64,000 nucleotides of DNA from an uncultured Methanomassiliicoccus sp. (GTDB lineage: Archaea; Thermoplasmatota; Thermoplasmata; Methanomassiliicoccales; UBA472). The DNA is taken from positions 119,515 to 183,514 of the forward strand of contig CAZPFU010000001.1 in the NCBI GenBank assembly GCA_964585915.1. Direction: 5' to 3'. The notes under the pieces are model-generated. The model saw nothing but the letters and a program-made list of their open reading frames with translations. It was not told where the DNA came from and made no database searches. Both the position numbers and the translations under genes were made by a program. This document shows, piece by piece, positions 8,579 to 64,000 of this stretch. Position 1 is the first letter of the stretch, and every line of letters starts with the position of its first letter.

Positions 8579-10537
8579 ATGGAAGCGAATGATGGCGGTG
8601 AGCCCGCATTATTACCTATGTTCGATGCCAAGACCGAGCCCCATACAGGCTTGGCCTTGGAACTTGAGTCGATGCGCATCCCGGACCTGCGGGTCGTGGC
8701 CGGAAAGGGAGAGCTGGAGCTCTATTGCCGGGACCAGGCCGACGTCCCCCAGATGCTCAAGGACGTGCTTATCCGCTACGTCCCGGACCTGGTGGTCCAG
8801 CCATGCACGCCGGAGGCTACGGTGGAGGCATTGGGTTTCGCCAAGGCCCGCGGCCTTCCGGTCATTCCGCGCGGATCCGGGTCCTCGCCCTTCGGGGGCT
8901 CCATCCCGGTGAACGGAGGGATGGTCCTGGACGCCGGGAACCTGGACCGGGTGCTTTCCGTGGACAAGGAGAAGAAGTTGGTGAAGGTCCAGGGCGGGTG
9001 CCGGTGGGCTGACGTGGACCATGCCCTCTCGGCGCATGGCCTCAGGCTGTTGAGCTGTCCGTCCAGCCGGTTCTCCACGGTCGCCGGTTGGATCTCCGGA
9101 GGGGGGTTGGGCGTCGGTTCCCTGGGCGGCGGGCATCTGAGCGAGATCGTGACCTCGGTCAGATTGGCCACTCCGGCTGGATTGATCACCCTCCGCTCGC
9201 CTCAAGAGGAGCTCAAGGCCGTCTTCGGCAGCGAGGGGCAGCTGGGCATCATCGTGGAGGCCACGCTCAAGGTGAAGGAGAAGGGTACGGGAGCAAGGCC
9301 GCACCTTCTGCTGTTCAAGGACCTCGATGCGGCTGTGGAGACGGCGGAGAGGCTGCGCCGCCTCTCGCCTCTGCCGGAGGACCTCATCTACTTCTCGCCT
9401 GGAAAGCTCAGGTACGCGAACAAGCTCCTTCACGGAGACCACTTCGGGGATGGCCACGCTTTGCTGGTAACCTCTGCCGATGAAGGCTCGGAGAAGGCCG
9501 TATCGGACCTGATGGCCTCCCTGGGGGTCAACGAGGAGAAGGAATATCAGGCCCGCCTGCTCTGGCATGAGCGCTACTTCCCGATGAAGCTGCGCCGCCT
9601 GGGCCCCGGGATGCTGGGAGCGGAGGTGCTGGCCCCCATGGGCAGGTTGAAGGACATCCTGCACCGGGCCGAGGAGCTCTGTCAGGAGTTCGACCTGGAC
9701 CCGCTGCTCGAGGTGCACTTCGTGCGCGGGAACGAATCCCTGCTCCTCTGCTACTATCTTACCGACCAGGTGAACCAGTCCGCCTACACCTTGGACGCCG
9801 CGAAGTCCATGGTCGTCACATCATCCCTCATCGGGCTGGGGGCCAGGCCTTATTCGTTGGGGGTCTGGAACAACTCCTTCGCCGACAGCTGGCCGGCCGA
9901 GGAGATGGAACGCCTGAGGAAGGCGAAGGAGCGTTACGATCCATCGAACATCATGAACCCCGGGAAGTACTTCGCCCTCAAAGGCCGCCTGTTCGGCGGG
10001 GCCGGGATGATCTTCAGCCCGGCCGGGTCCGGGGCGGCCTTCGGGCTGATGGCCAAGCTGCACTCCCCCCTGGGCGCGGCGTTCCGTTCCCTGTCATCGT
10101 TATCCAAGAAGGCCATGGGGCCGAGGGAACGCGACCCCCTCGTGCAGATGGCCAACCAGTGCGCCATGTGCGGGGCCTGCGTGAGCGTGTGCCCGGCCTA
10201 TGCCTTGACCAGGGACGAGCGGGTCACCGCCCGCGGCAAGCTGTTGACCGCCAAGACCTTGGCCGAGGGAGGGGAGATCACCCGCGAGCATGCCCATCGG
10301 ACCTTCCTGTGCATGAGATGCAAAGCCTGCGAACAGGTCTGCCAGTCGAAGCTTGAACTGATCCCTGCCTACGAGGACCTGGAGGCGCGTCTGGAGAAGG
10401 CCTACGGCAAGGACGCCGCGGAGATCGAGCGTTTCGTCCGTGTGGCGGAGGTCAGCCCTCGATACGAGGAGATGGTGGCCCGCGGACTGGTGCTTGGCGC
10501 CCCCAAGAACGCCATGGGAGGCGAGCGCCGTGTATGA
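8579..10537 (+). CDS. FAD-linked oxidase (GlcD-like, PCMH-type FAD domain) fused to a C-terminal 2x[4Fe-4S] domain of GlcF/HdrD N-terminal type
   Basis: FAD-binding block VVQPCTPEATVEALGFAKARGLPVIPRGSGSSPFGGS. C-terminal CAMCGACVSVCP...TARGK...CMRCKACEQVC. No CCG domains follow. Confidence 0.8.
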   Translation: MEANDGGEPALLPMFDAKTEPHTGLALELESMRIPDLRVVAGKGELELYCRDQADVPQMLKDVLIRYVPDLVVQPCTPEATVEALGFAKARGLPVIPRGSGSSPFGGSIPVNGGMVLDAGNLDRVLSVDKEKKLVKVQGGCRWADVDHALSAHGLRLLSCPSSRFSTVAGWISGGGLGVGSLGGGHLSEIVTSVRLATPAGLITLRSPQEELKAVFGSEGQLGIIVEATLKVKEKGTGARPHLLLFKDLDAAVETAERLRRLSPLPEDLIYFSPGKLRYANKLLHGDHFGDGHALLVTSADEGSEKAVSDLMASLGVNEEKEYQARLLWHERYFPMKLRRLGPGMLGAEVLAPMGRLKDILHRAEELCQEFDLDPLLEVHFVRGNESLLLCYYLTDQVNQSAYTLDAAKSMVVTSSLIGLGARPYSLGVWNNSFADSWPAEEMERLRKAKERYDPSNIMNPGKYFALKGRLFGGAGMIFSPAGSGAAFGLMAKLHSPLGAAFRSLSSLSKKAMGPRERDPLVQMANQCAMCGACVSVCPAYALTRDERVTARGKLLTAKTLAEGGEITREHAHRTFLCMRCKACEQVCQSKLELIPAYEDLEARLEKAYGKDAAEIERFVRVAEVSPRYEEMVARGLVLGAPKNAMGGERRV

Positions 10538-39452: not shown

Positions 39453-39710
39453 ATGACAAGTTTGAAAGTAGAGATCATGGACAAGATTGTGGCCTTGATG
39501 ACTGCAGCCTTCGGTTTCGTTGCTGCGCTGGCCTGGAACGGGGCCATCTCGCAACTGATGGAGGACTGGCTTGGCACCGGCGGGGACCAGACCATGGGTC
39601 TGATCATATACGCCATCATCGTCACCGCCGTGGCCGTTATCGCCATCGTCCTGATATCCAGGGTGTACGGCAAGATAAAGGCCAAGGAAGAGGCCAAGGA
39701 GAAGAAGTAA
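39453..39710 (+). CDS. Small membrane protein (85 aa, 2 TM, Lys/Glu-rich tail)
   Basis: AGGAGGG SD 6-7 nt upstream. TM segments IVALMTAAFGFVAALAW and LIIYAIIVTAVAVIAIVLI. TAA stop followed by a T-run. Confidence 0.6.
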   Translation: MTSLKVEIMDKIVALMTAAFGFVAALAWNGAISQLMEDWLGTGGDQTMGLIIYAIIVTAVAVIAIVLISRVYGKIKAKEEAKEKK

Positions 39711-39732
39711 TCCTATTACCAAACCCTTTAAT

Positions 39733-39746
39733 CTCTTCCTTTTTTG
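39733..39746 (+). terminator. Oligo-T tract after the small membrane protein gene
   Basis: CTCTTCCTTTTTTG with a T6 run at 39740-39745, about 30 nt after the TAA stop. This is archaeal-type oligo-T termination by inference. Confidence 0.35.
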
Positions 39747-39828
39747 TGATGTTTCCAATATTGTTCTCGTCGCACCAAAACGATGATAACCGCCCTTGGC
39801 TATCCTGAAAACGTACAGGAGGCTTCAC

Positions 39829-40839
39829 ATGAAGGTCAAGGTAGGGATCAACGGCTATGGCACGATAGGCAAGAGAGTGGCTTGGGCTGTGAGCAGGCAG
39901 GACGACATGGAGGTCGTCGGGGTCACTAAAACGCGTCCCTCGTACGAGGCTTCCACTGCATTACGGGAAGGCTGTCCTCTCTACGCGGCGCACGCTGAGG
40001 ACGTGGATAACTTCGAGAAGGCCGGGATAAAGGTCCATGGGACCTTGGACGATCTGCTGAAAAAGGTGGACGTGATCGTGGACTGCACGCCTGGGGGAAC
40101 CGGGGCCAAGAACAAGGAGCTGTACGTCAAGGCCGGGGTCAAGTCCATATTCCAGGGAGGGGAGGACCACGACATGGCCGGGATATCCTTCAACGCCCTG
40201 GCCAACTATCAGGAGGCCTGGGGAGCCTCCTCCGTCAGGGTCGTCTCCTGCAACACCACCGGACTGGTCCGCACGCTCTTCCCGCTGCAACAGGCCTTCG
40301 GCATCCAGAAGGTCTTCGCCTCGCTCATCCGCCGCGGGGCCGACCCGGCCGATAAGAAGGGTGCGGCGCTCAACGCCATCGAGCCTTCGCTTAAACTGCC
40401 GACCCACCACGGACCGGACGTGAAGACGGTCATGCACGGGCTGGAAATCCAGACCATGGCCGTGGTGACCCCGACCACCCTGATGCACCTGCACTGCATC
40501 GTGGTGGACCTGAAGAAGGAGGTCACCGAAAAAGAGGTACTGGAGGTCTGGTCCAGATCGCCGCGCCTGCAGCTGGTATCCGGGAAGGACGGCATAAAGA
40601 ACACCGGCCAGATCATGGAACTGGCCAAGGACCTGCACCGGGTGCGCGGGGACCTGATGGACATCGCGGTGTGGAAGGACGGGATCAAGACCGTCGGCTC
40701 CACCCTGTACTACTATCAGGCCGTGCACCAGGAGAGCGACGTGGTACCGGAGAACGTGGACTGCATCAGGGCCATGATGAAGCTGGAGAAGGACAACCTG
40801 GCCTCCATCGCCAAGACCAACAAGTCCATCGGTCTCTGA
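39829..40839 (+). CDS. gap: Archaeal type II glyceraldehyde-3-phosphate dehydrogenase
   Basis: MKVKVGINGYGTIGKRVA and catalytic SCNTTGL. 336 aa. AGGAGG SD upstream of the ATG at 39829. Confidence 0.9.
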   Translation: MKVKVGINGYGTIGKRVAWAVSRQDDMEVVGVTKTRPSYEASTALREGCPLYAAHAEDVDNFEKAGIKVHGTLDDLLKKVDVIVDCTPGGTGAKNKELYVKAGVKSIFQGGEDHDMAGISFNALANYQEAWGASSVRVVSCNTTGLVRTLFPLQQAFGIQKVFASLIRRGADPADKKGAALNAIEPSLKLPTHHGPDVKTVMHGLEIQTMAVVTPTTLMHLHCIVVDLKKEVTEKEVLEVWSRSPRLQLVSGKDGIKNTGQIMELAKDLHRVRGDLMDIAVWKDGIKTVGSTLYYYQAVHQESDVVPENVDCIRAMMKLEKDNLASIAKTNKSIGL

Positions 40840-57923: not shown

Positions 57924-60900
57924 TCACTTCTTCCTGAGGAGGATAAAAGCTACGATGCCGACAACTGCCAGGACCGCGATGGCGATGATGACGTACAGCC
58001 AGACCGCACCGCCGTCGCCATCCTCTTCGCCCTCTATTTCGTCTGGAACCATCTCCACCGTGCCCTCGTCGATGGTGACCCCCTGTTCGATCGTGGCGTT
58101 GAAGGTGAACGGTTCGTATCCTTCCACGTTGACCTCGAACAGGTAGGTGCCCAGAGATAAGTTGGAGAACACGAAACGGCCGTTCTCATCGGTCACGGCG
58201 GTGAACTCCCCGCCGGCGGTAACCGTGACCCCGGGGACAGGATCTCCGTTCTCATCCAGTATCAACCCTGTAAGGTTCCCTACCGACCGGGTGGAGAAGG
58301 TCCAGTTCATCTCAATCGAGTTGCCGGCCAGGTCCTTGCCGCTTACAGCTACCGCGTAAACGCGGTTGAACTGCAGCGCGGACGGCGTGAACGTCGCCGA
58401 GTTGCCCTCCCAGGCAATGGTTCCAGTGACACCGGGAACGGATATCATAACGGACGTCTGGTTCATGGCCTCGGAGAACTCGACGAGCACGACCTGATCT
58501 AGCTCCAGTTCATCACCGATCGGTGAAATCTCGGCCGTTGGCGCGACGGTGTCAACGGTGAAATTGGCCGATTTCTCCACGGAGTTACCGGCGGCATCGG
58601 TCACCTTGACGTACGCGATATGATGGCCGTCGGTCAGCGCGATCCACACGAGCTCCTCACCGGTCGCCGTGGTCCATCCTTCTCCGTCTAACATCACCTG
58701 GACCGTTCCAGGATTGGTGTCGGCGATGGTCCAGGTCACGGTCACCGAGGATGCGTTGAACAGCTGCCCTTCAACAGGAGAATCGATAACCAAGGTCGGA
58801 GCCAGGGTGTCTACGGTGAACTCTACCGTCACATCCAGGTAGTTGCCCAGGTGATCGTAAGCACTGACCAGGACAGTATACATACCATCGGCCAGGTCAT
58901 TGAATACGCACGAGGTGTCGGTGGTATTGAAGAACGCCAGGCCTTCGATGCTCGCTGTGTAATACGCGACCCCGGTACCGGCGTCGCTGCCGGACCAGGT
59001 GACCGTGACATCAGAGCTGTTAACGAATACGTCCTGCACCGGTGAGATGATGGTAATAGAGGGCACTTGCGTATCCACCACCACCGTCACCGAGTCCGAG
59101 GAGGACCGGCCGAACTTGTCGTAGATGATCACGGTCAGAACGTGCGAACCATCGCTGAGGCCGGTGAAGGTGTGCGAACCCGCGCTGGACTGCAACGTCA
59201 CCTGGGAACCGCCTTCCCAGCTCACCACATAACGGTCCACCCCGGAACCAGCGTCGCTGCCGGTCCAGGTCAGCGTTATGCTTCCCGTGGTATTGATAAG
59301 CCCATCGGCCGGGGAGACTATATTGATCGTTGGGGAGGCGACTTCGACGGTGAAGGTGATGACCTCGTCCTTGTAGTGGTCCAGTTCGTCATAAGCGCTC
59401 ACCATGACCGTATACGTGCCATCGGCCAAGCCGTTTATTGTGTACGAGCTGTCAGTTGTGTTGACGGAGAACATCCCTTCGATGCTAACCACGTAATAGG
59501 CCACGCCAGTACCGGCATCGTTACCGGTCCAGGAGACAGTGACGCTGCTTCCCACGTAAGCCCCCTCCGTAGGAGATGTGATGACCAGGGACGGTGAGGT
59601 TGTGTCGAGGATCACTGACACCGAGTCGCTCCTCTCGATCCCCGACAGGTCCGTCATGGTCACCGTTATCAGATTCGCCCCTTCCACCAGGGCGATGGTG
59701 GCGGTCCATGCCTCGGTTCCTGCGCAAACACCGGACCCGCCGGTTGCGGCGTTGTACCATGTGACCTGGACCACACCGAAGAAGCTGATAGCCGTTCCAG
59801 ACAGACCAACGTTAGCATCTTCGGTAGCGGCGCCTTCGGCCGGAGAGGTTATAACAATGCTCACCGCCAGAGGCATCATGTCCTTACCGGTGCCGCCATC
59901 GATGAGGTATGCCTCATCAACGATACCATCGCCATCCAGATCCGGAGAGGTCCAGTCGCTCCAGAAGTTACCGTTCGATGAGAGGTTCCAGCAATTCAGC
60001 CCATCATCGAACGCCTGGACGTGCGAACCATCGAAAACAGAGGTCGCTCCGTTGTTGTCTGTGAGGATGTTTCCGTACAGAACGTTTCCTTGGGAAGATC
60101 CCAATCTGATTCCGTAAAGGGTGTTGCCCACACAGGTATTGTTGGAAATTTGGGTACTGGTCGTGTCAAGAGCATAGATGCCGACCGCACTGTTGTAGGA
60201 GCAGGTATTGTTCGAGATCGTGGTGCCGTCGAACGGAGAATATTCCAGGTAGATCCCGTGAACGGTGTTTCCGTTGCAGATGTTATCAGCGATGAGATAA
60301 TGATCCGCCCTCCCGATCTGGATACCGAACAAATCATTGCCGCTACAGTCATTGTGGGTAAGGACCATGTTGCTGGACTCGCCCATTATCACAATGCCCT
60401 GGTAAATGTTGTCGCTGAGATCGTTGCCATCAATTATGATGTAGCTCGAATCGCCAACATAGATCCCGTGGAGGTTTCCATGGCATGAGTTGTTGATGAT
60501 CGAATTAGAATCGGAGTACGAGGAAAGGGATATCCCGCCCTCGTCGTCATTTCCATTGCAGGCGTTTTTTGTTATAACATTGCCATCGGAAGATTCGAGA
60601 GATATGCCTTTGAAGTTGCCTTGAGCCACATTTCCTGCGATGGTATTGTTGTTGGAATCGAGCAGGACTATGCCACCGGAGGCGTTGCTGCACGTATTAT
60701 TGGTTATGGTATTGTTCTTGGAGGAATCCAGGTATATCCCGTAATTGTTACCGAGAGTACAATCGTTATCCGCGATGGTGTTATTGCTCGAGTTGATCAC
60801 GAATATCCCGTTATAGCTCCCATCGCAATTGTTGCCGGAGATGGTGTTATTGGATGAGGAACTGAGATAGATGCCATCAATCCCGTTCGTGGCCGCGTTT

Positions 60901-62366
60901 CCGGTTACGGTGTTGTTGTCGGCCAAGACCATGAAGATGTCATGATTGTTCCCGTCGCAGGTATTGTTGATGAGGGCATTGTTACTCGAACGGTACAGGT
61001 CAATGCCTACGGTGCATCCACTGCAATTATTGTTCTGGATCGTGTTATGGGTGGAGTAGGACAAGTAAATCCCACAGCCCCCATTGTTGTCGCTGCAGTT
61101 GTTATCGGCGATGGAGTTGTAAGTGGATTCGTCCATGAAAACGCCATAATTGTTCTCATGAAGCTCATTGATGTACAGCTCGTTATGGTCGGAATCGGAG
61201 AGATAAATGCCGTCGGTGTTGAGCCTGGCGATGTTGTTATGAACAGCACAACCCTCGGAATCATCTAGCCATATTCCGGAATCCCCGTTGAGGACGAGGT
61301 TGTTGAAAGAGACCTGGGACCCCGATGAGCCCTGGACCAGGATGCCCGACCCGTTGCTCTTGATGACGTCGTTGGAAGAGACGACGTTGTTCGGGGAGTT
61401 CAGGACCCATATCCCGTAGTAATTGTTGCTGTCGCATTCGTTGTGGGCTATGCTGTTGCCGGTCGAGGAGTAGGCAGAAGATGATGACACATAGATGCCG
61501 GCACCATCTAGAACATAGCCGTTCTGGAAGCATGAGTTGTTCGTAATATTATTGCTGAAGCTAGAGGCTTCCGATGAATAGATGGCGATTCCATTGACCG
61601 AGTTGTTGGAACAAAGGTTGTCGCGGATGTCGTTTCCATGGGAATAGTCAACAGATAGACCGTCCCCGTCGTTGTTATCGCAGGTATTGTTGTGGACGCT
61701 GTTTGAATTCGAGCCATAGAGTACGATTCCGGCGTTGTTGTTGTTCACCTCGTTTTCGTAGATCGTGTTGTTGCCAGAATCCTTCAGGGAAATGCCCGCG
61801 CCATTCATGTAAGTGATCAGGTTACCGCTGAGCTCGCTGCGTTCCACATTTTCGAGGTTAAGTCCGTCAGCGCTGTTGGTGAAGTAATTACCGACGACCT
61901 CGATGTCCGATGCCACCCTGATCGCAACGCCATACAATGGATTGTTCCAGCAATCATTGCCGGTCATGCTGACGTTATTGCATGAATACAGCGTTATCGC
62001 ATCGTCGGCGTTGTTCCTTATGGTGTTCCCCTGGATCCAGATGTTGCTCGAGTACCAGACCTCAATGCCGACATGATTGGAGTTCTCCAGGATGCACTCG
62101 GATATCCACAGGTGCTTGTTGACGAAGTTGATGGAGATCGCGTAGCTGTTGCCGGTGGCATCGATCTCCAGGCCGCTGAGGATGTAAGGATCGCCTTCGC
62201 TTCCGTCGCCGGGTAATCCCATGGCATCCAGTTCGGCGTCCGATCCGATGTAGATCGGACCCGAGGGTGCGGCGTCCGCCGAACCGGACATCCCGGCCGA
62301 TAGGAACACCACGGCCATCATCAACGCGAAACCTAGGACTGCGCATCTGCAAAAAACCTTTGTCAT
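57924..62366 (-). CDS. Giant (1480 aa) secreted, C-terminally membrane-anchored surface protein: beta-helix (PbH1/NosD-like) repeats + Ig-like repeats + CarboxypepD_reg-like domain
   Basis: Sec-type signal peptide MTKVFCRCAVLGFALMMAVVFLSAGMSGSADA. About 30 repeats of the pattern NNTIxxNxCxxNxxxGIxLxxS. Five Ig-like modules of about 88 aa each. An acidic linker and the TM anchor AVWLYVIIAIAVLAVVGIVAFILLRKK. Confidence 0.85.
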   Translation of the reverse strand: MTKVFCRCAVLGFALMMAVVFLSAGMSGSADAAPSGPIYIGSDAELDAMGLPGDGSEGDPYILSGLEIDATGNSYAISINFVNKHLWISECILENSNHVGIEVWYSSNIWIQGNTIRNNADDAITLYSCNNVSMTGNDCWNNPLYGVAIRVASDIEVVGNYFTNSADGLNLENVERSELSGNLITYMNGAGISLKDSGNNTIYENEVNNNNAGIVLYGSNSNSVHNNTCDNNDGDGLSVDYSHGNDIRDNLCSNNSVNGIAIYSSEASSFSNNITNNSCFQNGYVLDGAGIYVSSSSAYSSTGNSIAHNECDSNNYYGIWVLNSPNNVVSSNDVIKSNGSGILVQGSSGSQVSFNNLVLNGDSGIWLDDSEGCAVHNNIARLNTDGIYLSDSDHNELYINELHENNYGVFMDESTYNSIADNNCSDNNGGCGIYLSYSTHNTIQNNNCSGCTVGIDLYRSSNNALINNTCDGNNHDIFMVLADNNTVTGNAATNGIDGIYLSSSSNNTISGNNCDGSYNGIFVINSSNNTIADNDCTLGNNYGIYLDSSKNNTITNNTCSNASGGIVLLDSNNNTIAGNVAQGNFKGISLESSDGNVITKNACNGNDDEGGISLSSYSDSNSIINNSCHGNLHGIYVGDSSYIIIDGNDLSDNIYQGIVIMGESSNMVLTHNDCSGNDLFGIQIGRADHYLIADNICNGNTVHGIYLEYSPFDGTTISNNTCSYNSAVGIYALDTTSTQISNNTCVGNTLYGIRLGSSQGNVLYGNILTDNNGATSVFDGSHVQAFDDGLNCWNLSSNGNFWSDWTSPDLDGDGIVDEAYLIDGGTGKDMMPLAVSIVITSPAEGAATEDANVGLSGTAISFFGVVQVTWYNAATGGSGVCAGTEAWTATIALVEGANLITVTMTDLSGIERSDSVSVILDTTSPSLVITSPTEGAYVGSSVTVSWTGNDAGTGVAYYVVSIEGMFSVNTTDSSYTINGLADGTYTVMVSAYDELDHYKDEVITFTVEVASPTINIVSPADGLINTTGSITLTWTGSDAGSGVDRYVVSWEGGSQVTLQSSAGSHTFTGLSDGSHVLTVIIYDKFGRSSSDSVTVVVDTQVPSITIISPVQDVFVNSSDVTVTWSGSDAGTGVAYYTASIEGLAFFNTTDTSCVFNDLADGMYTVLVSAYDHLGNYLDVTVEFTVDTLAPTLVIDSPVEGQLFNASSVTVTWTIADTNPGTVQVMLDGEGWTTATGEELVWIALTDGHHIAYVKVTDAAGNSVEKSANFTVDTVAPTAEISPIGDELELDQVVLVEFSEAMNQTSVMISVPGVTGTIAWEGNSATFTPSALQFNRVYAVAVSGKDLAGNSIEMNWTFSTRSVGNLTGLILDENGDPVPGVTVTAGGEFTAVTDENGRFVFSNLSLGTYLFEVNVEGYEPFTFNATIEQGVTIDEGTVEMVPDEIEGEEDGDGGAVWLYVIIAIAVLAVVGIVAFILLRKK
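58551..59864 (-). repeat. Five tandem Ig-like modules (about 88 aa each)
   Basis: Amino acids about 835-1272. Modules share I-[TS]-SP-x-[DE]G...V-T-[VL]-[ST]-W-[TS]-G-[SN]-D-A-G-[TS]-G-V...DG-x-[YH]-x-V-x-V...D-x-x-G-N/x...[FV]-T-V-[DE]-T. Modules 2 and 4 are the most similar. Confidence 0.7.
59967..62189 (-). repeat. Parallel beta-helix (PbH1-type) coding repeats, about 22-23 aa periodicity
   Basis: Amino acids about 60-800 of the giant protein. Recurrent N-N-[ST]-[IV]-x-x-N-x-C and G-I-x-[LV] rungs, with very many N-x-S/T sequons. Coordinates converted from residue counts. Confidence 0.7.
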
Positions 62367-62437
62367 TTTATTTCCCCCACTCGAATGAAATAGGCCTTTA
62401 TGGCGTGATGGTCATTAATGTTTTCGTCGGAGTTTAT

Positions 62438-62451
62438 CAATTCGTGAATTG
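62438..62451. promoter_or_regulatory. 14-bp palindrome in the divergent intergenic region between the giant surface-protein gene and the larA-like gene
   Basis: CAATTC-GT-GAATTG (arms are perfect reverse complements) within an AT-rich spacer. A candidate operator; function is inferred only. Confidence 0.3.
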
Positions 62452-62562
62452 ACTGGATACGGCTATGACCGCTCTCTCTTAACCGTTCATCCTAAATAAT
62501 TGAACTTCTCACCAGTGCGGTATGGCAATTCTTTAATACTCAGTTCGCCAACGGTGGACCGG

Positions 62563-63801
62563 ATGCTCCTCAAGCTGCCATATGGGGAAGGTACCTTGCT
62601 CAAGGCCAAGGTCCCAGATGAAAATCTGGCTGGTATAGTCGGACCGCACGAGGTCCACTGCGCCCCGGACGAGATCGAAAGAGCGTTGTCCAAGCCCTTC
62701 GGCCGTTCGCTCGAATCGTTCCTGCAGGACGCGAACGACATCGTGTTCCTGGTCAACGACGGAACGAGACCGACCCCGACCTCGAAGGTGCTGGATGCTC
62801 TAGCGGTGCACATGGACCTCAAGAAGGCGCGCTACCTCATCGCCACCGGCGCCCACCGGGGACCGACCGAGAGCGAGCTGAAGTTCATATTCGGAGATCA
62901 TCTTGCCGATCTGCGGGAACGCATCATCGTCCATGACGCCAAACGTTCCAAGTGCGTTCATCTTGGAGTTTCCAAGAACGGCACGGACATGGATGTGAAC
63001 GAAGTAGCGGTCAACGCCGACCGCTTGATGATCATAACCAGCGTGGAGCCGCATTACTTCGCCGGCTACACCGGAGGCAGGAAATCGTTCCTGCCAGGCG
63101 TGGCCTCCTTCCGCACCATCGAGCAGAACCATAAGATGGCCATGCGACCGGAGGCCCAGACCCTGGTCCTGGACGGGAATCCAGTTCACGAGGACATGAT
63201 GGATGCCCTATCGGTCGTCAAGAAGGAGATATTCTCCATCCAGGTGGTCCTGGACCGCCACCAGCGCATCTACAAGGCCGCGGCGGGCGATCTACATAAA
63301 GCGTTCCGCCAAGCGGTGGAGTGGGCGAACGAGGTCTTCTCGATAACCATCAAGCAGCGCTATGACGCGGTGATAACCGTCGCACCATACCCCATGGACG
63401 TGGACCTTTACCAAGCGCAGAAGGCCATCGACAACGCCAAATGGGCCTTGAAGGAAGGCGGGACGCTCATCCTGGTGGCCAAGTGCCGCGAGGGCATGGG
63501 CGAGGAGACCTTCGCCAAGCAGCTCTCGGCGTCCAAGGACAAGCGTAAGGTGCTCAAGAACCTGGAGAAGGAGTACAAGCTTGGGTACCATAAAGCGGCC
63601 AAGGTGGCCGAGGTGATGTGCTCCGCCGACCTGTGGGCGGTGACCGCCCTCGACCCTCGCAGGCTGGAGGAGATGGGGATCGTTCCCTTCGGCACCCTGC
63701 AGGAGGCGGTGGACTCGCTGCTGAGGGAAAAGCCAAAAGCCCAGATCCTGGTTCTCCTGGACGGCAGCGTGACCGTGCCGAAGGTGCGTGAAGATGAGTG
63801 A
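62563..63801 (+). CDS. LarA-family nickel-pincer-cofactor-dependent 2-hydroxyacid racemase/epimerase homologue (DUF2088)
   Basis: MLLKLPYGEG start pattern; NDGTRPTP; IATGAHRG (catalytic His region); EPHYFAGYTGGRKSFLPG (His plus cofactor-tethering Lys region); TIEQNH. The ORF-track TTG at 62500 is probably too far upstream. Confidence 0.75.
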   Translation: MLLKLPYGEGTLLKAKVPDENLAGIVGPHEVHCAPDEIERALSKPFGRSLESFLQDANDIVFLVNDGTRPTPTSKVLDALAVHMDLKKARYLIATGAHRGPTESELKFIFGDHLADLRERIIVHDAKRSKCVHLGVSKNGTDMDVNEVAVNADRLMIITSVEPHYFAGYTGGRKSFLPGVASFRTIEQNHKMAMRPEAQTLVLDGNPVHEDMMDALSVVKKEIFSIQVVLDRHQRIYKAAAGDLHKAFRQAVEWANEVFSITIKQRYDAVITVAPYPMDVDLYQAQKAIDNAKWALKEGGTLILVAKCREGMGEETFAKQLSASKDKRKVLKNLEKEYKLGYHKAAKVAEVMCSADLWAVTALDPRRLEEMGIVPFGTLQEAVDSLLREKPKAQILVLLDGSVTVPKVREDE

Positions 63802-64000
63802 GACGATCGAGGCGACCAACCTCCGCAAGTTGAAGAAGGAGCTGATGACCTGCACCTACTGCGGGTTCTGCAAGAGCGTGTGCCCCACCTTCCAGAGGGT
63901 GGGCTGGGACCCTTCCGTCGCCCGCGGACGCATGGTCCTGGCGTACGGTTTGCTGCAGAAGGAGATACCGGCCGACCCTTCCGTTCTCGAGTACCTATAC
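63794..64000 (+). CDS. HdrD/GlpC/GlcF-family Fe-S oxidoreductase; N-terminal part only (runs off the window)
   Basis: Not in the ORF track because no stop is reached. ATG at 63794 gives MSETIEATNLRKLKKELMTCTYCGFCKSVCPTFQRVGWDPSVARGRMVLAYGLL, i.e. CxxCxxCxxxCP followed by the S/V-A-R-G-R motif of this family. It overlaps the larA-like stop by 8 nt. Confidence 0.65.
   Translation, partial: MSETIEATNLRKLKKELMTCTYCGFCKSVCPTFQRVGWDPSVARGRMVLAYGLLQKEIPADPSVLEYLY

Follow-up and report, generated by a model that had tools for sequence, protein, structure and literature searches.

To our knowledge, the only activities known for enzymes of the LarA family are redox-neutral racemisation and epimerisation. 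The question raised by the locus described here is why a LarA-like gene should be joined to hdrD2, a gene for an iron-sulfur protein of the heterodisulfide reductase (Hdr) type. The locus lies at the end of a 64,000-nucleotide (nt) stretch of DNA from an uncultured Methanomassiliicoccus sp. (assembly GCA_964585915.1, contig CAZPFU010000001.1), which is referred to as the window and corresponds to G000:C1:119515-183514; G000 is the source genome, and f, g, G and L numbers are working labels for families, genera, genomes and loci. The two products very probably form a stable two-subunit enzyme. The function of this enzyme is proposed tentatively: it may be an obligate two-subunit, pincer-dependent and flavin-free oxidoreductase acting on malate-type 2-hydroxyacids.

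Structure of the larA-hdrD2 locus

The source genome is a metagenome-assembled genome (MAG) of the Methanomassiliicoccales with 57 contigs, 1.79 Mb, a G+C content of 59% and a completeness of 94.5%, and mcrA is present. The nearest public loci were found in MAGs of the same order, in many cases derived from digesters, and the studied stretch was found in sludge sequencing runs. The list of open reading frames (ORFs) and the raw sequence agreed with the ORF coordinates, the motifs and the 8-nt overlap described in the initial annotation. The larA-like gene runs on the plus strand from its ATG at 62563 to a TGA at 63799-63801, and its stop lies inside the start of hdrD2 (Table 1). An alternative TTG start at 62500 was rejected because Met1 at 62563 coincides with the starts of all 25 other orthologues and is thus conserved throughout the 26 aligned sequences.

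Table 1. Window coordinates of the features of the larA-hdrD2 locus
Feature	Position	Strand	Basis or remark
LarA-family gene, 412 amino acids (aa), "Group 04" of Desguin et al., malate-racemase-like	62563..63801	+	Pfam Lar_N + LarA_C
Overlap of larA-like stop with hdrD2 start, 8 nt, ATGAGTGA	63794..63801	+	Translational coupling
5' part of hdrD2 inside the window	63794..64000	+	Start ATG 63794; 366 aa in full
ATGAHRG with catalytic His98 (= His108 of L. plantarum LarA)	62842..62862	+	Alignment to LarA/Mar2 structures
EPHYFAGYTGGRK, with second catalytic His164 and cofactor-tethering Lys174	63046..63084	+	Alignment to LarA/Mar2 structures
Asn189-His190 (NH); His190 = Ni-ligand His200 of LarA	63127..63132	+	Alignment to structures
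First ferredoxin-type motif CxxCxxCxxxCP, CTYCGFCKSVCP	63851..63886	+	Cys20, 23, 26 and 30 invariant
Intergenic region between the divergent 1480-aa surface-protein gene and the larA-like gene	62367..62562	.	Presumed operon promoter region
Candidate TATA element, A+T-rich CTAAATAA	near 62493		Within the presumed promoter region

The downstream gene had been taken in the initial annotation as HdrD/GlcF-type from its first codons. When the contig was extended, the frame was found to continue without an early stop to G000:C1:184408, which is 894 nt beyond the window, and the complete product of 366 aa carries two CCG domains. The initial annotation had raised the question of a GlcD partner further downstream; folP, encoding dihydropteroate synthase (DHPS), follows instead, beginning 7 nt 3' of hdrD2 (G000:C1:184415-185575 = L002:3416-4576), and the GlcD-like gene lies 170 kb away. 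The folP product has an N-terminal extension of approximately 115 aa without a Pfam match, and the DHPS domain alone aligns to it in loci of the Methanomethylophilaceae type. With the larA-like gene upstream of hdrD2 and folP downstream of it, no flavoprotein gene adjoins the pair, and no malate-related gene was found in the source-genome locus itself. Regarding transcription, a 225-nt contig of an oligo-dT RNA library spans the larA/hdrD2 junction with zero mismatches (Logan contigs from sludge libraries, of uncertain RNA or DNA nature), which suggests co-transcription weakly at best; parts of the locus without such coverage are uninformative.

Conservation, fusion and distribution of the pair

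The conservation of the pair was determined in 121 genomes of the order and in 20 class-level genomes outside it; the samples are rich in MAGs, so "not found" does not equal "absent". A LarA orthologue was present in 117 of the 121 genomes with 49-92% identity. The hdrD2 gene stands directly after larA, in the same order and on the same strand, in 109 of 109 related loci, an adjacency far beyond chance, and folP then follows in nearly all of them with a spacing that varies within the order up to 1.3 kb. The 8-nt overlap is constant in the source genus, and in other lineages the junction is a gap of 1-3 nt, a single in-frame stop (many loci) or a fusion. True single-ORF larA-hdrD2 fusions of 775-780 aa, with a linker of practically zero length, were found at no fewer than eight loci (at least 8), and open frames of 784-792 aa were found in four single-contig genomes. 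One 778-aa cluster member carries the annotation "lactate racemase". When the natural 778-aa fusion was modelled by AlphaFold2 with 21 paired rows, the domains folded with a mean pLDDT (predicted local distance difference test) of 83, and the pTM (predicted template modelling score) was 0.56, so the relative placement of the domains is not confident.

The pair is not confined to methanogens. All genera of the order were positive for mcrA, and a search of the 20 genomes from outside the order did not detect it in any of them. The larA-hdrD2-folP trio was nevertheless present in all eight sampled genomes of families f10 and f30 (8 of the 20 class-level genomes), where LarA is 45-48% and HdrD2 53-57% identical and folP often follows within 2-60 nt. 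Families f10 and f30 are thus non-methanogenic sister families holding the module, and its presence in genomes without detected mcrA argues against the coenzyme M-coenzyme B heterodisulfide (CoM-S-S-CoB) as a universal acceptor.

Every genome in which an HdrD2 orthologue (53-57% identity) was found also contained a close LarA orthologue. In family f9, close larA and hdrD2 orthologues are unlinked, folP is beside neither, and the neighbourhood of the unlinked hdrD2 is uninformative. Families with a LarA homologue and no HdrD2 orthologue showed other gene contexts. Outside the class, no LarA-HdrD pairing was found among the 50%-identity representatives, and the nearest homologues have GAPDH-PGK, transporters or an Hps-like gene as neighbours.

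A stable two-subunit enzyme is very likely in view of the translational coupling, the conservation throughout the order and across families, and the repeated fusions without a linker. The initial annotation had described the hard coupling of a LarA homologue to an HdrD/GlcF-type protein as unusual. As the downstream frame is complete and carries its CCG domains, the catalytic residues are retained on proper alignment, larB and larE are present elsewhere in the genome, and the adjacency is conserved and in some relatives even fused, this structural claim stands.

Active site and substrate class of the LarA-like protein

The LarA-like protein has the two-domain LarA architecture (Lar_N PF09861, 2.8e-47; LarA_C PF21113, 2.7e-14), and it is the product of the single Lar_N gene of the source genome. 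Its best PDB match was the malate racemase Mar2 (6d6z, 1.5e-70), followed by LarA of T. thermosaccharolyticum and of L. plantarum, and it aligns at full length to the LarA and Mar2 structures. Among the NCBIfam models, the LarAH6 malate racemase model (NF052593) scored best with 382 bits, which is below its cut-off of 500, and the lactate racemase model followed with 288 bits. The residues D66, R69, H98, H164, K174, H190, Y283, Q284 and K287 are all invariant among 26 orthologues, in line with the catalytic histidines and the lysine that had been noted from the sequence, and they are kept in class-level homologues too. The YQxQK + GHK signature is common to the LarA-like protein, Mar1 and Mar2, and the active-site signature is the same in HdrD-coupled and uncoupled LarA homologues.

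Among characterised LarA homologues, the protein was placed nearest to the malate racemase Mar2 and within Group 04. Desguin et al. 2020 (PMC7583248) list the Methanomassiliicoccales orthologues H729_01150, MMALV_14900 and TALC_01392 in this group in their supplement, with the prediction "MAR?". No member of the group is known to have had its activity measured. The Lar_N and LarA_C domains, all catalytic and cofactor residues and the YQxQK + GHK signature are common to the LarA-like protein, Mar2/LarAH6 of Thermoanaerobacterium thermosaccharolyticum (6D6Z) and Group 04. The LarA-like protein differs from Mar2/LarAH6 in scoring below the family cut-off, in its coupling or fusion to an Fe-S/CCG protein, and in that larC was not found in the source genome.

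A gene context in a related family bears on the substrate. In the f23 genome G150 (L156:3884-7924), a LarA homologue of 46% identity overlaps the start of the class I fumarase alpha gene, and the locus continues with fumarase beta and succinyl-CoA synthetase beta (sucC) in an operon of the tricarboxylic acid cycle type. This larA-fumarase operon supports a malate-type substrate for this LarA clade, and the substrate class of the LarA-like protein is likely malate more than lactate, as far as homology and gene context can tell. Another context was observed in the nearest relatives outside the class (L135 and L136), whose LarA homologues are 48-50% identical and form the third gene of GAPDH-PGK-LarA operons; a glycerate-type substrate is hinted at for that branch. 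COG0126 is listed near Group 04 genes in Table S1 of Desguin et al. (PMC7583248).

Identity of the iron-sulfur partner

The complete HdrD2 product contains two 4Fe-4S motifs (PF13183) and two copies of the CCG domain PF02754 (1.9e-32), and an ARGR motif stands near its N-terminus alongside CTYCGFCKSVCP. All 18 cluster cysteines are invariant: eight belong to the ferredoxin-type motifs, and the others form two five-cysteine CCG sets (C147, C178, C179, C216 and C219; C264, C300, C301, C336 and C339), the spacing of which equals the HdrB pattern Cx30-35CCx34-36CxxC, twice. The family profile matched solved Hdr chains, namely HdrC over residues 16-121 and HdrB over residues 140-347. Judged by its sequence, HdrD2 is a protein of the classical HdrD architecture (HdrC+HdrB type; COG0247). 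Every NCBIfam equivalog score was below its cut-off; the top match was to the HdrD-like part of TfrB, where only model positions 127-484 were covered, with a score of 225 bits (cut-off 385). The adjacent GlcDE, GlpAB or LutBC genes by which GlcF, GlpC or LutA is recognised were not found at the locus, and those model scores were all sub-cut-off.

Four CCG proteins were found in the source genome: besides HdrD2, these are another HdrD-like protein, encoded on contig C6, and two proteins of the HdrB type. The paralogue on C6 (P0302, hdrD1-type) is 35% identical to HdrD2, and practically all genomes of the order contain an orthologue of it. Both hdrD1 and hdrD2 were listed for the order by Borrel et al. 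2014, and a review identifies hdrD1 (WP_019178460) as the HdrD component of the Fpo-like:HdrD model. In G006, a single-contig, reference-like genome, the CCG genes lie at 116, 266 (LarA-adjacent), 334 and 530 kb. This spacing matches the accession gaps of 139, 69 and 198 between hdrD1, hdrD2, hdrB1 and hdrB2 only when the LarA-adjacent gene is hdrD2; we therefore infer that the LarA partner is hdrD2, which is consistent with the locus tags H729_01150 and MMALV_14900. The possibility that the LarA partner is the HdrD of the Fpo-HdrD complex (hdrD1, AGN25510 / WP_019178460) was rejected on the basis of this accession-spacing mapping and by the separate universal paralogue.

HdrD2 is like the HdrD of HdrDE, and like hdrD1 of the Fpo-like:HdrD model, in its HdrC+HdrB architecture with two ferredoxin clusters and two CCG motifs. 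HdrE has not been reported in Methanomassiliicoccales (PMC4153887). HdrD2 differs from hdrD1 in sequence, in having orthologues in non-methanogens, and in its LarA-type partner in place of cytochrome b or Fpo.

Two observations were made on hdrD1 itself. In the source genome (G000:C6:33581-40699), the hdrD1-type paralogue (39518-40699) adjoins divergent large membrane subunits of 660, 301, 219 and 485 aa, which resemble genes of Mbh/Hyf/Mrp-type complexes. The open frame of hdrD1 reaches 560-650 aa in several genomes of the Methanomethylophilaceae, which suggests an N-terminal extension or a fusion.

Genes for the nickel-pincer cofactor

The pincer cofactor of LarA enzymes is normally the nickel-pincer nucleotide (NPN), which is made by LarB, LarE and LarC. 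As had been stated from the window alone, no larB, larC or larE is encoded in it. A search of the source genome, which had been proposed along with that statement, was successful in part: larB (249 bits) and larE (272 bits) were found above their cut-offs on contig C21, and larC was not found with the models TIGR00299 and PF01969. Of the LarB, LarE and LarC pathway expected beside a member of the LarA superfamily, only the first two were thus detected in the source genome. Across the order, LarB and LarE were each found in 115 of the 121 genomes and LarC in 39, with 82 lacking a detected copy, including all 15 genomes of the source genus. LarC was found mostly in Methanomethylophilaceae-type genomes, and some others showed only short LarC1-like forms of approximately 250 aa.

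Two genera go further. In genus g23 (G042, G110 and G120), which includes Ca. Methanarcanum hacksteinii according to a contig match, the trio and all catalytic residues are kept, and larB, larE and larC were not found. The same holds for the module and its catalytic residues in the non-methanogenic genus g53 (G248, G148 and G254). With the module kept and none of the three genes detected in g23 and g53, the identity of the cofactor itself is uncertain. In the LarA literature, genomes with LarBCE and without LarA are mentioned, and the reverse case was not found.

The arrangement of the two remaining genes was also observed. In the source genus, larB and larE are approximately 3.3-4 kb apart (C21:19595-24289; L010 5572-10302), and in the rest of the order the two genes are divergently oriented neighbours. 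Encoded within the insert are two NifX/Nitro_FeMo-Co-like proteins, a DUF134 protein and two P-loop ATPases of the MinD/CbiA type that carry ferredoxin inserts. Nickel-insertion chaperones are known among the MinD-type ATPases. That the insert provides a substitute for LarC is pure speculation.

Proposed function of the LarA-HdrD2 enzyme

The initial annotation had offered two functional readings, a racemase that supplies a stereospecific 2-hydroxyacid oxidoreductase and a LarA-fold enzyme with a new redox role. In the mechanism that we favour, the two genes would encode subunits of one obligate enzyme, which in some relatives are the halves of a single polypeptide. The LarA-like subunit would bind a malate-type 2-hydroxyacid, and the C2 hydride would be abstracted onto the pyridinium pincer cofactor in the fashion of LarA racemases. 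The reducing equivalents would then not merely be returned to the 2-oxoacid and would be exchanged with HdrD2, whose two ferredoxin-type [4Fe-4S] clusters and two CCG-type non-cubane clusters may swap electrons with a disulfide or another low-potential acceptor. Such a complex would work like GlcDEF, LutABC, the GlcD-HdrD lactate dehydrogenases or TfrAB, with a pincer enzyme in the place of the flavoprotein. In its most specific form, the proposal is that the LarA fold acts here as a true redox enzyme, in which the pincer takes the hydride of a malate-type substrate and is re-oxidised via the HdrD2 clusters. The result would be a core enzyme of the Methanomassiliicoccales and their non-methanogenic kin, namely a flavin-free oxidoreductase of 2-hydroxyacids with a disulfide or another compound as acceptor. 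This form is doubtful and is held less firmly than the general assignment.

Known systems offer both likeness and difference. GlcDEF, the GlcD-HdrD D-lactate dehydrogenases, LutABC, GlpABC and TfrAB similarly combine a catalytic subunit for 2-hydroxyacids or dicarboxylates with a subunit carrying two [4Fe-4S] clusters and two CCG sets. Unlike in these systems, the catalytic partner of HdrD2 is neither a flavoprotein nor a LUD-domain protein, and GlcD is unlinked. A TfrAB-like thiol:fumarate reductase was ruled out, as HdrD2 is without the N-terminal [2Fe-2S] SdhB-like domain of TfrB and no TfrA/SdhA-type flavoprotein was found in the source genome, where PF00890 gave short dinucleotide-fold matches only. 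A precedent for the chemistry is the NPN-dependent hydride transferase NphT, which has the aldo-keto reductase fold and in which pincer chemistry leads to net intermolecular hydride transfer and not to racemisation, and NPN is thus capable of such transfer in another scaffold (PMC13524815). NphT differs from LarA-HdrD2 in that it has another fold, no Fe-S partner and no sequence relation.

Several points weigh against the oxidoreductase. We know of no LarA-family member that releases its oxidised intermediate or exchanges electrons with Fe-S clusters. A hydride carrier usually needs a flavin to feed one-electron centres, and no flavin component is encoded at the larA-hdrD2 locus. Both catalytic histidines are kept, which a two-face racemase needs and a one-way dehydrogenase would not. 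Moreover, as the signature is identical in coupled and uncoupled homologues, the LarA part may perform ordinary racemisation in both. The unlinked GlcD-like flavoprotein of the order could be the real dehydrogenase. The occurrence of the module in non-methanogens implies that its acceptor would not be, or not only be, CoM-S-S-CoB. The missing larC of the source genome and of most genomes of the order, together with the uncertain cofactor of g23 and g53, bears on the pincer step, and the constant folP neighbour is left unexplained by an oxidoreductase.

Alternative explanations

The alternative that survives best keeps LarA as an ordinary racemase of malate or another 2-hydroxyacid that is docked to a dehydrogenase. 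LarA would interconvert the D and L forms, HdrD2 would be the Fe-S subunit of a GlcD-type D-2-hydroxyacid dehydrogenase with an unlinked flavoprotein, and the coupling would serve channelling and stoichiometry. This explanation is rather unlikely in itself and nearly as likely as the oxidoreductase. It accounts well for the two catalytic histidines and the full racemase signature, which are the same as in uncoupled homologues, and it agrees with the known CCG proteins GlcF, GlpC and TfrB, all of which partner flavoproteins. A flavoprotein is also available, since a GlcD-like gene was found in 118 of the 121 genomes of the order, unlinked to the module; in the source genome, the only strong one is C1:12879-13607. 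In families f2, f3 and f5, a GlcD-like gene stands directly before a third HdrD paralogue, which is 37-40% identical to hdrD1 (G024:C1:775386-777182, G010:C1:148237-150015 and G001:C2:71691-73499), in the classical GlcD-HdrD pairing and beside LarA-HdrD2; HdrD paralogues of the order thus do pair with GlcD. However, these families retain the separate LarA-HdrD2, GlcD adjoins the module in none of the examined loci, and the fusions link LarA with the Fe-S subunit, not with the flavoprotein. Furthermore, no known racemase requires physical attachment to a downstream dehydrogenase. Among the flavin-related matches, a weak FAD-oxidase_C match (1.2e-12) was also observed in a 675-aa open frame of the window (9305-9967; G000:C1:128819-129481, plus strand).

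An unlikely alternative is that HdrD2 is a reductive maintenance or regulatory subunit, the CCG clusters of which keep the sulfur-containing pincer cofactor or a LarA thiol reduced, or gate the racemase by redox state. The fully conserved racemase site would be expected in this case, HdrB-type clusters are disulfide-reducing catalysts (in the Hdr structures matched by the profile), and the module occurs in lineages with unusual or missing cofactor biosynthesis. NPN-loaded LarA enzymes have also been reported as labile (PMC11796402). Nevertheless, such an activase is without precedent in the LarA field, repair factors are not usually fused to their partner in a 1:1 ratio, and most LarA homologues, even close ones with an identical active site, do without HdrD2.

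Slightly less probable still is a joint role of LarA-HdrD2 and FolP in folate or pterin metabolism, for example as a pincer-hydride/Fe-S reductase or isomerase for an intermediate of the pterin pathway or side chain in archaea without the canonical enzymes. The position of folP 3' of hdrD2 in nearly all of the 109 loci, and again in the non-methanogenic f10 and f30 at often very short distances, favours this role. In contrast, the substrate signature of LarA is that of the malate racemases and is identical in bacterial Group 04 members without a folP link, the three orthologues are dispersed in family f9, the distance between hdrD2 and folP is variable, and no known folate step involves a 2-hydroxyacid. 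Finally, a neighbourhood without shared function, in which unrelated genes are held together by operon inertia, would allow both genes to persist unlinked as in f9 but is very improbable given the order-wide conservation with translational coupling, the repeated in-frame fusion without a linker and the retention across methanogenic and non-methanogenic lineages.

Other features of the window

The gene divergent from larA (window 57924-62366, minus strand) encodes a 1480-aa beta-helix-type surface protein. Its N-terminus is signal-like, a membrane anchor lies at its C-terminus, and its sequence contains long Asn/Ser/Gly-rich repeats of the beta-helix type as well as Ig-like repeats. A NosD/Beta_helix protein also adjoins the unlinked LarA in one f9 genome (L147:1136-3811).

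Previous records and significance

The pairing has left little trace in the literature. Table S1 of the 2020 study by Desguin et al. (PMC7583248) records COG0247 "Fe-S oxidoreductase" in the neighbourhood of 7 of the 18 Group 04 genes and dihydropteroate synthase in that of three, without interpretation, and no other published trace of the larA-hdrD2 pairing was found. No publication joining "lactate racemase" with "HdrD" or "Methanomassiliicoccus" was found, "hdrD2" was found in Borrel 2014 only, and the genomic papers on Methanomassiliicoccales discuss a single HdrD and never LarA.

A permanent LarA-HdrD partnership, sometimes as a fusion, would be the first link of nickel-pincer hydride chemistry to iron-sulfur/disulfide electron transfer. 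Almost all Methanomassiliicoccales, which are methanogens of the gut, rumen and digesters, carry the module as a core feature. The "second HdrD" of this order has never been given a role, and the energy models mention one HdrD. The occurrence of the module in relatives that are not methanogens is relevant to the question of what HdrD-like proteins reduce outside methanogenesis. The intact LarA site beside the widespread absence of LarC, and of LarB and LarE in two genera, also questions how or whether the nickel-pincer cofactor is made. If the proposed function is true, a redox LarA working without LarC, and in two genera without the known cofactor genes, would imply a LarC-independent or altered pincer cofactor.

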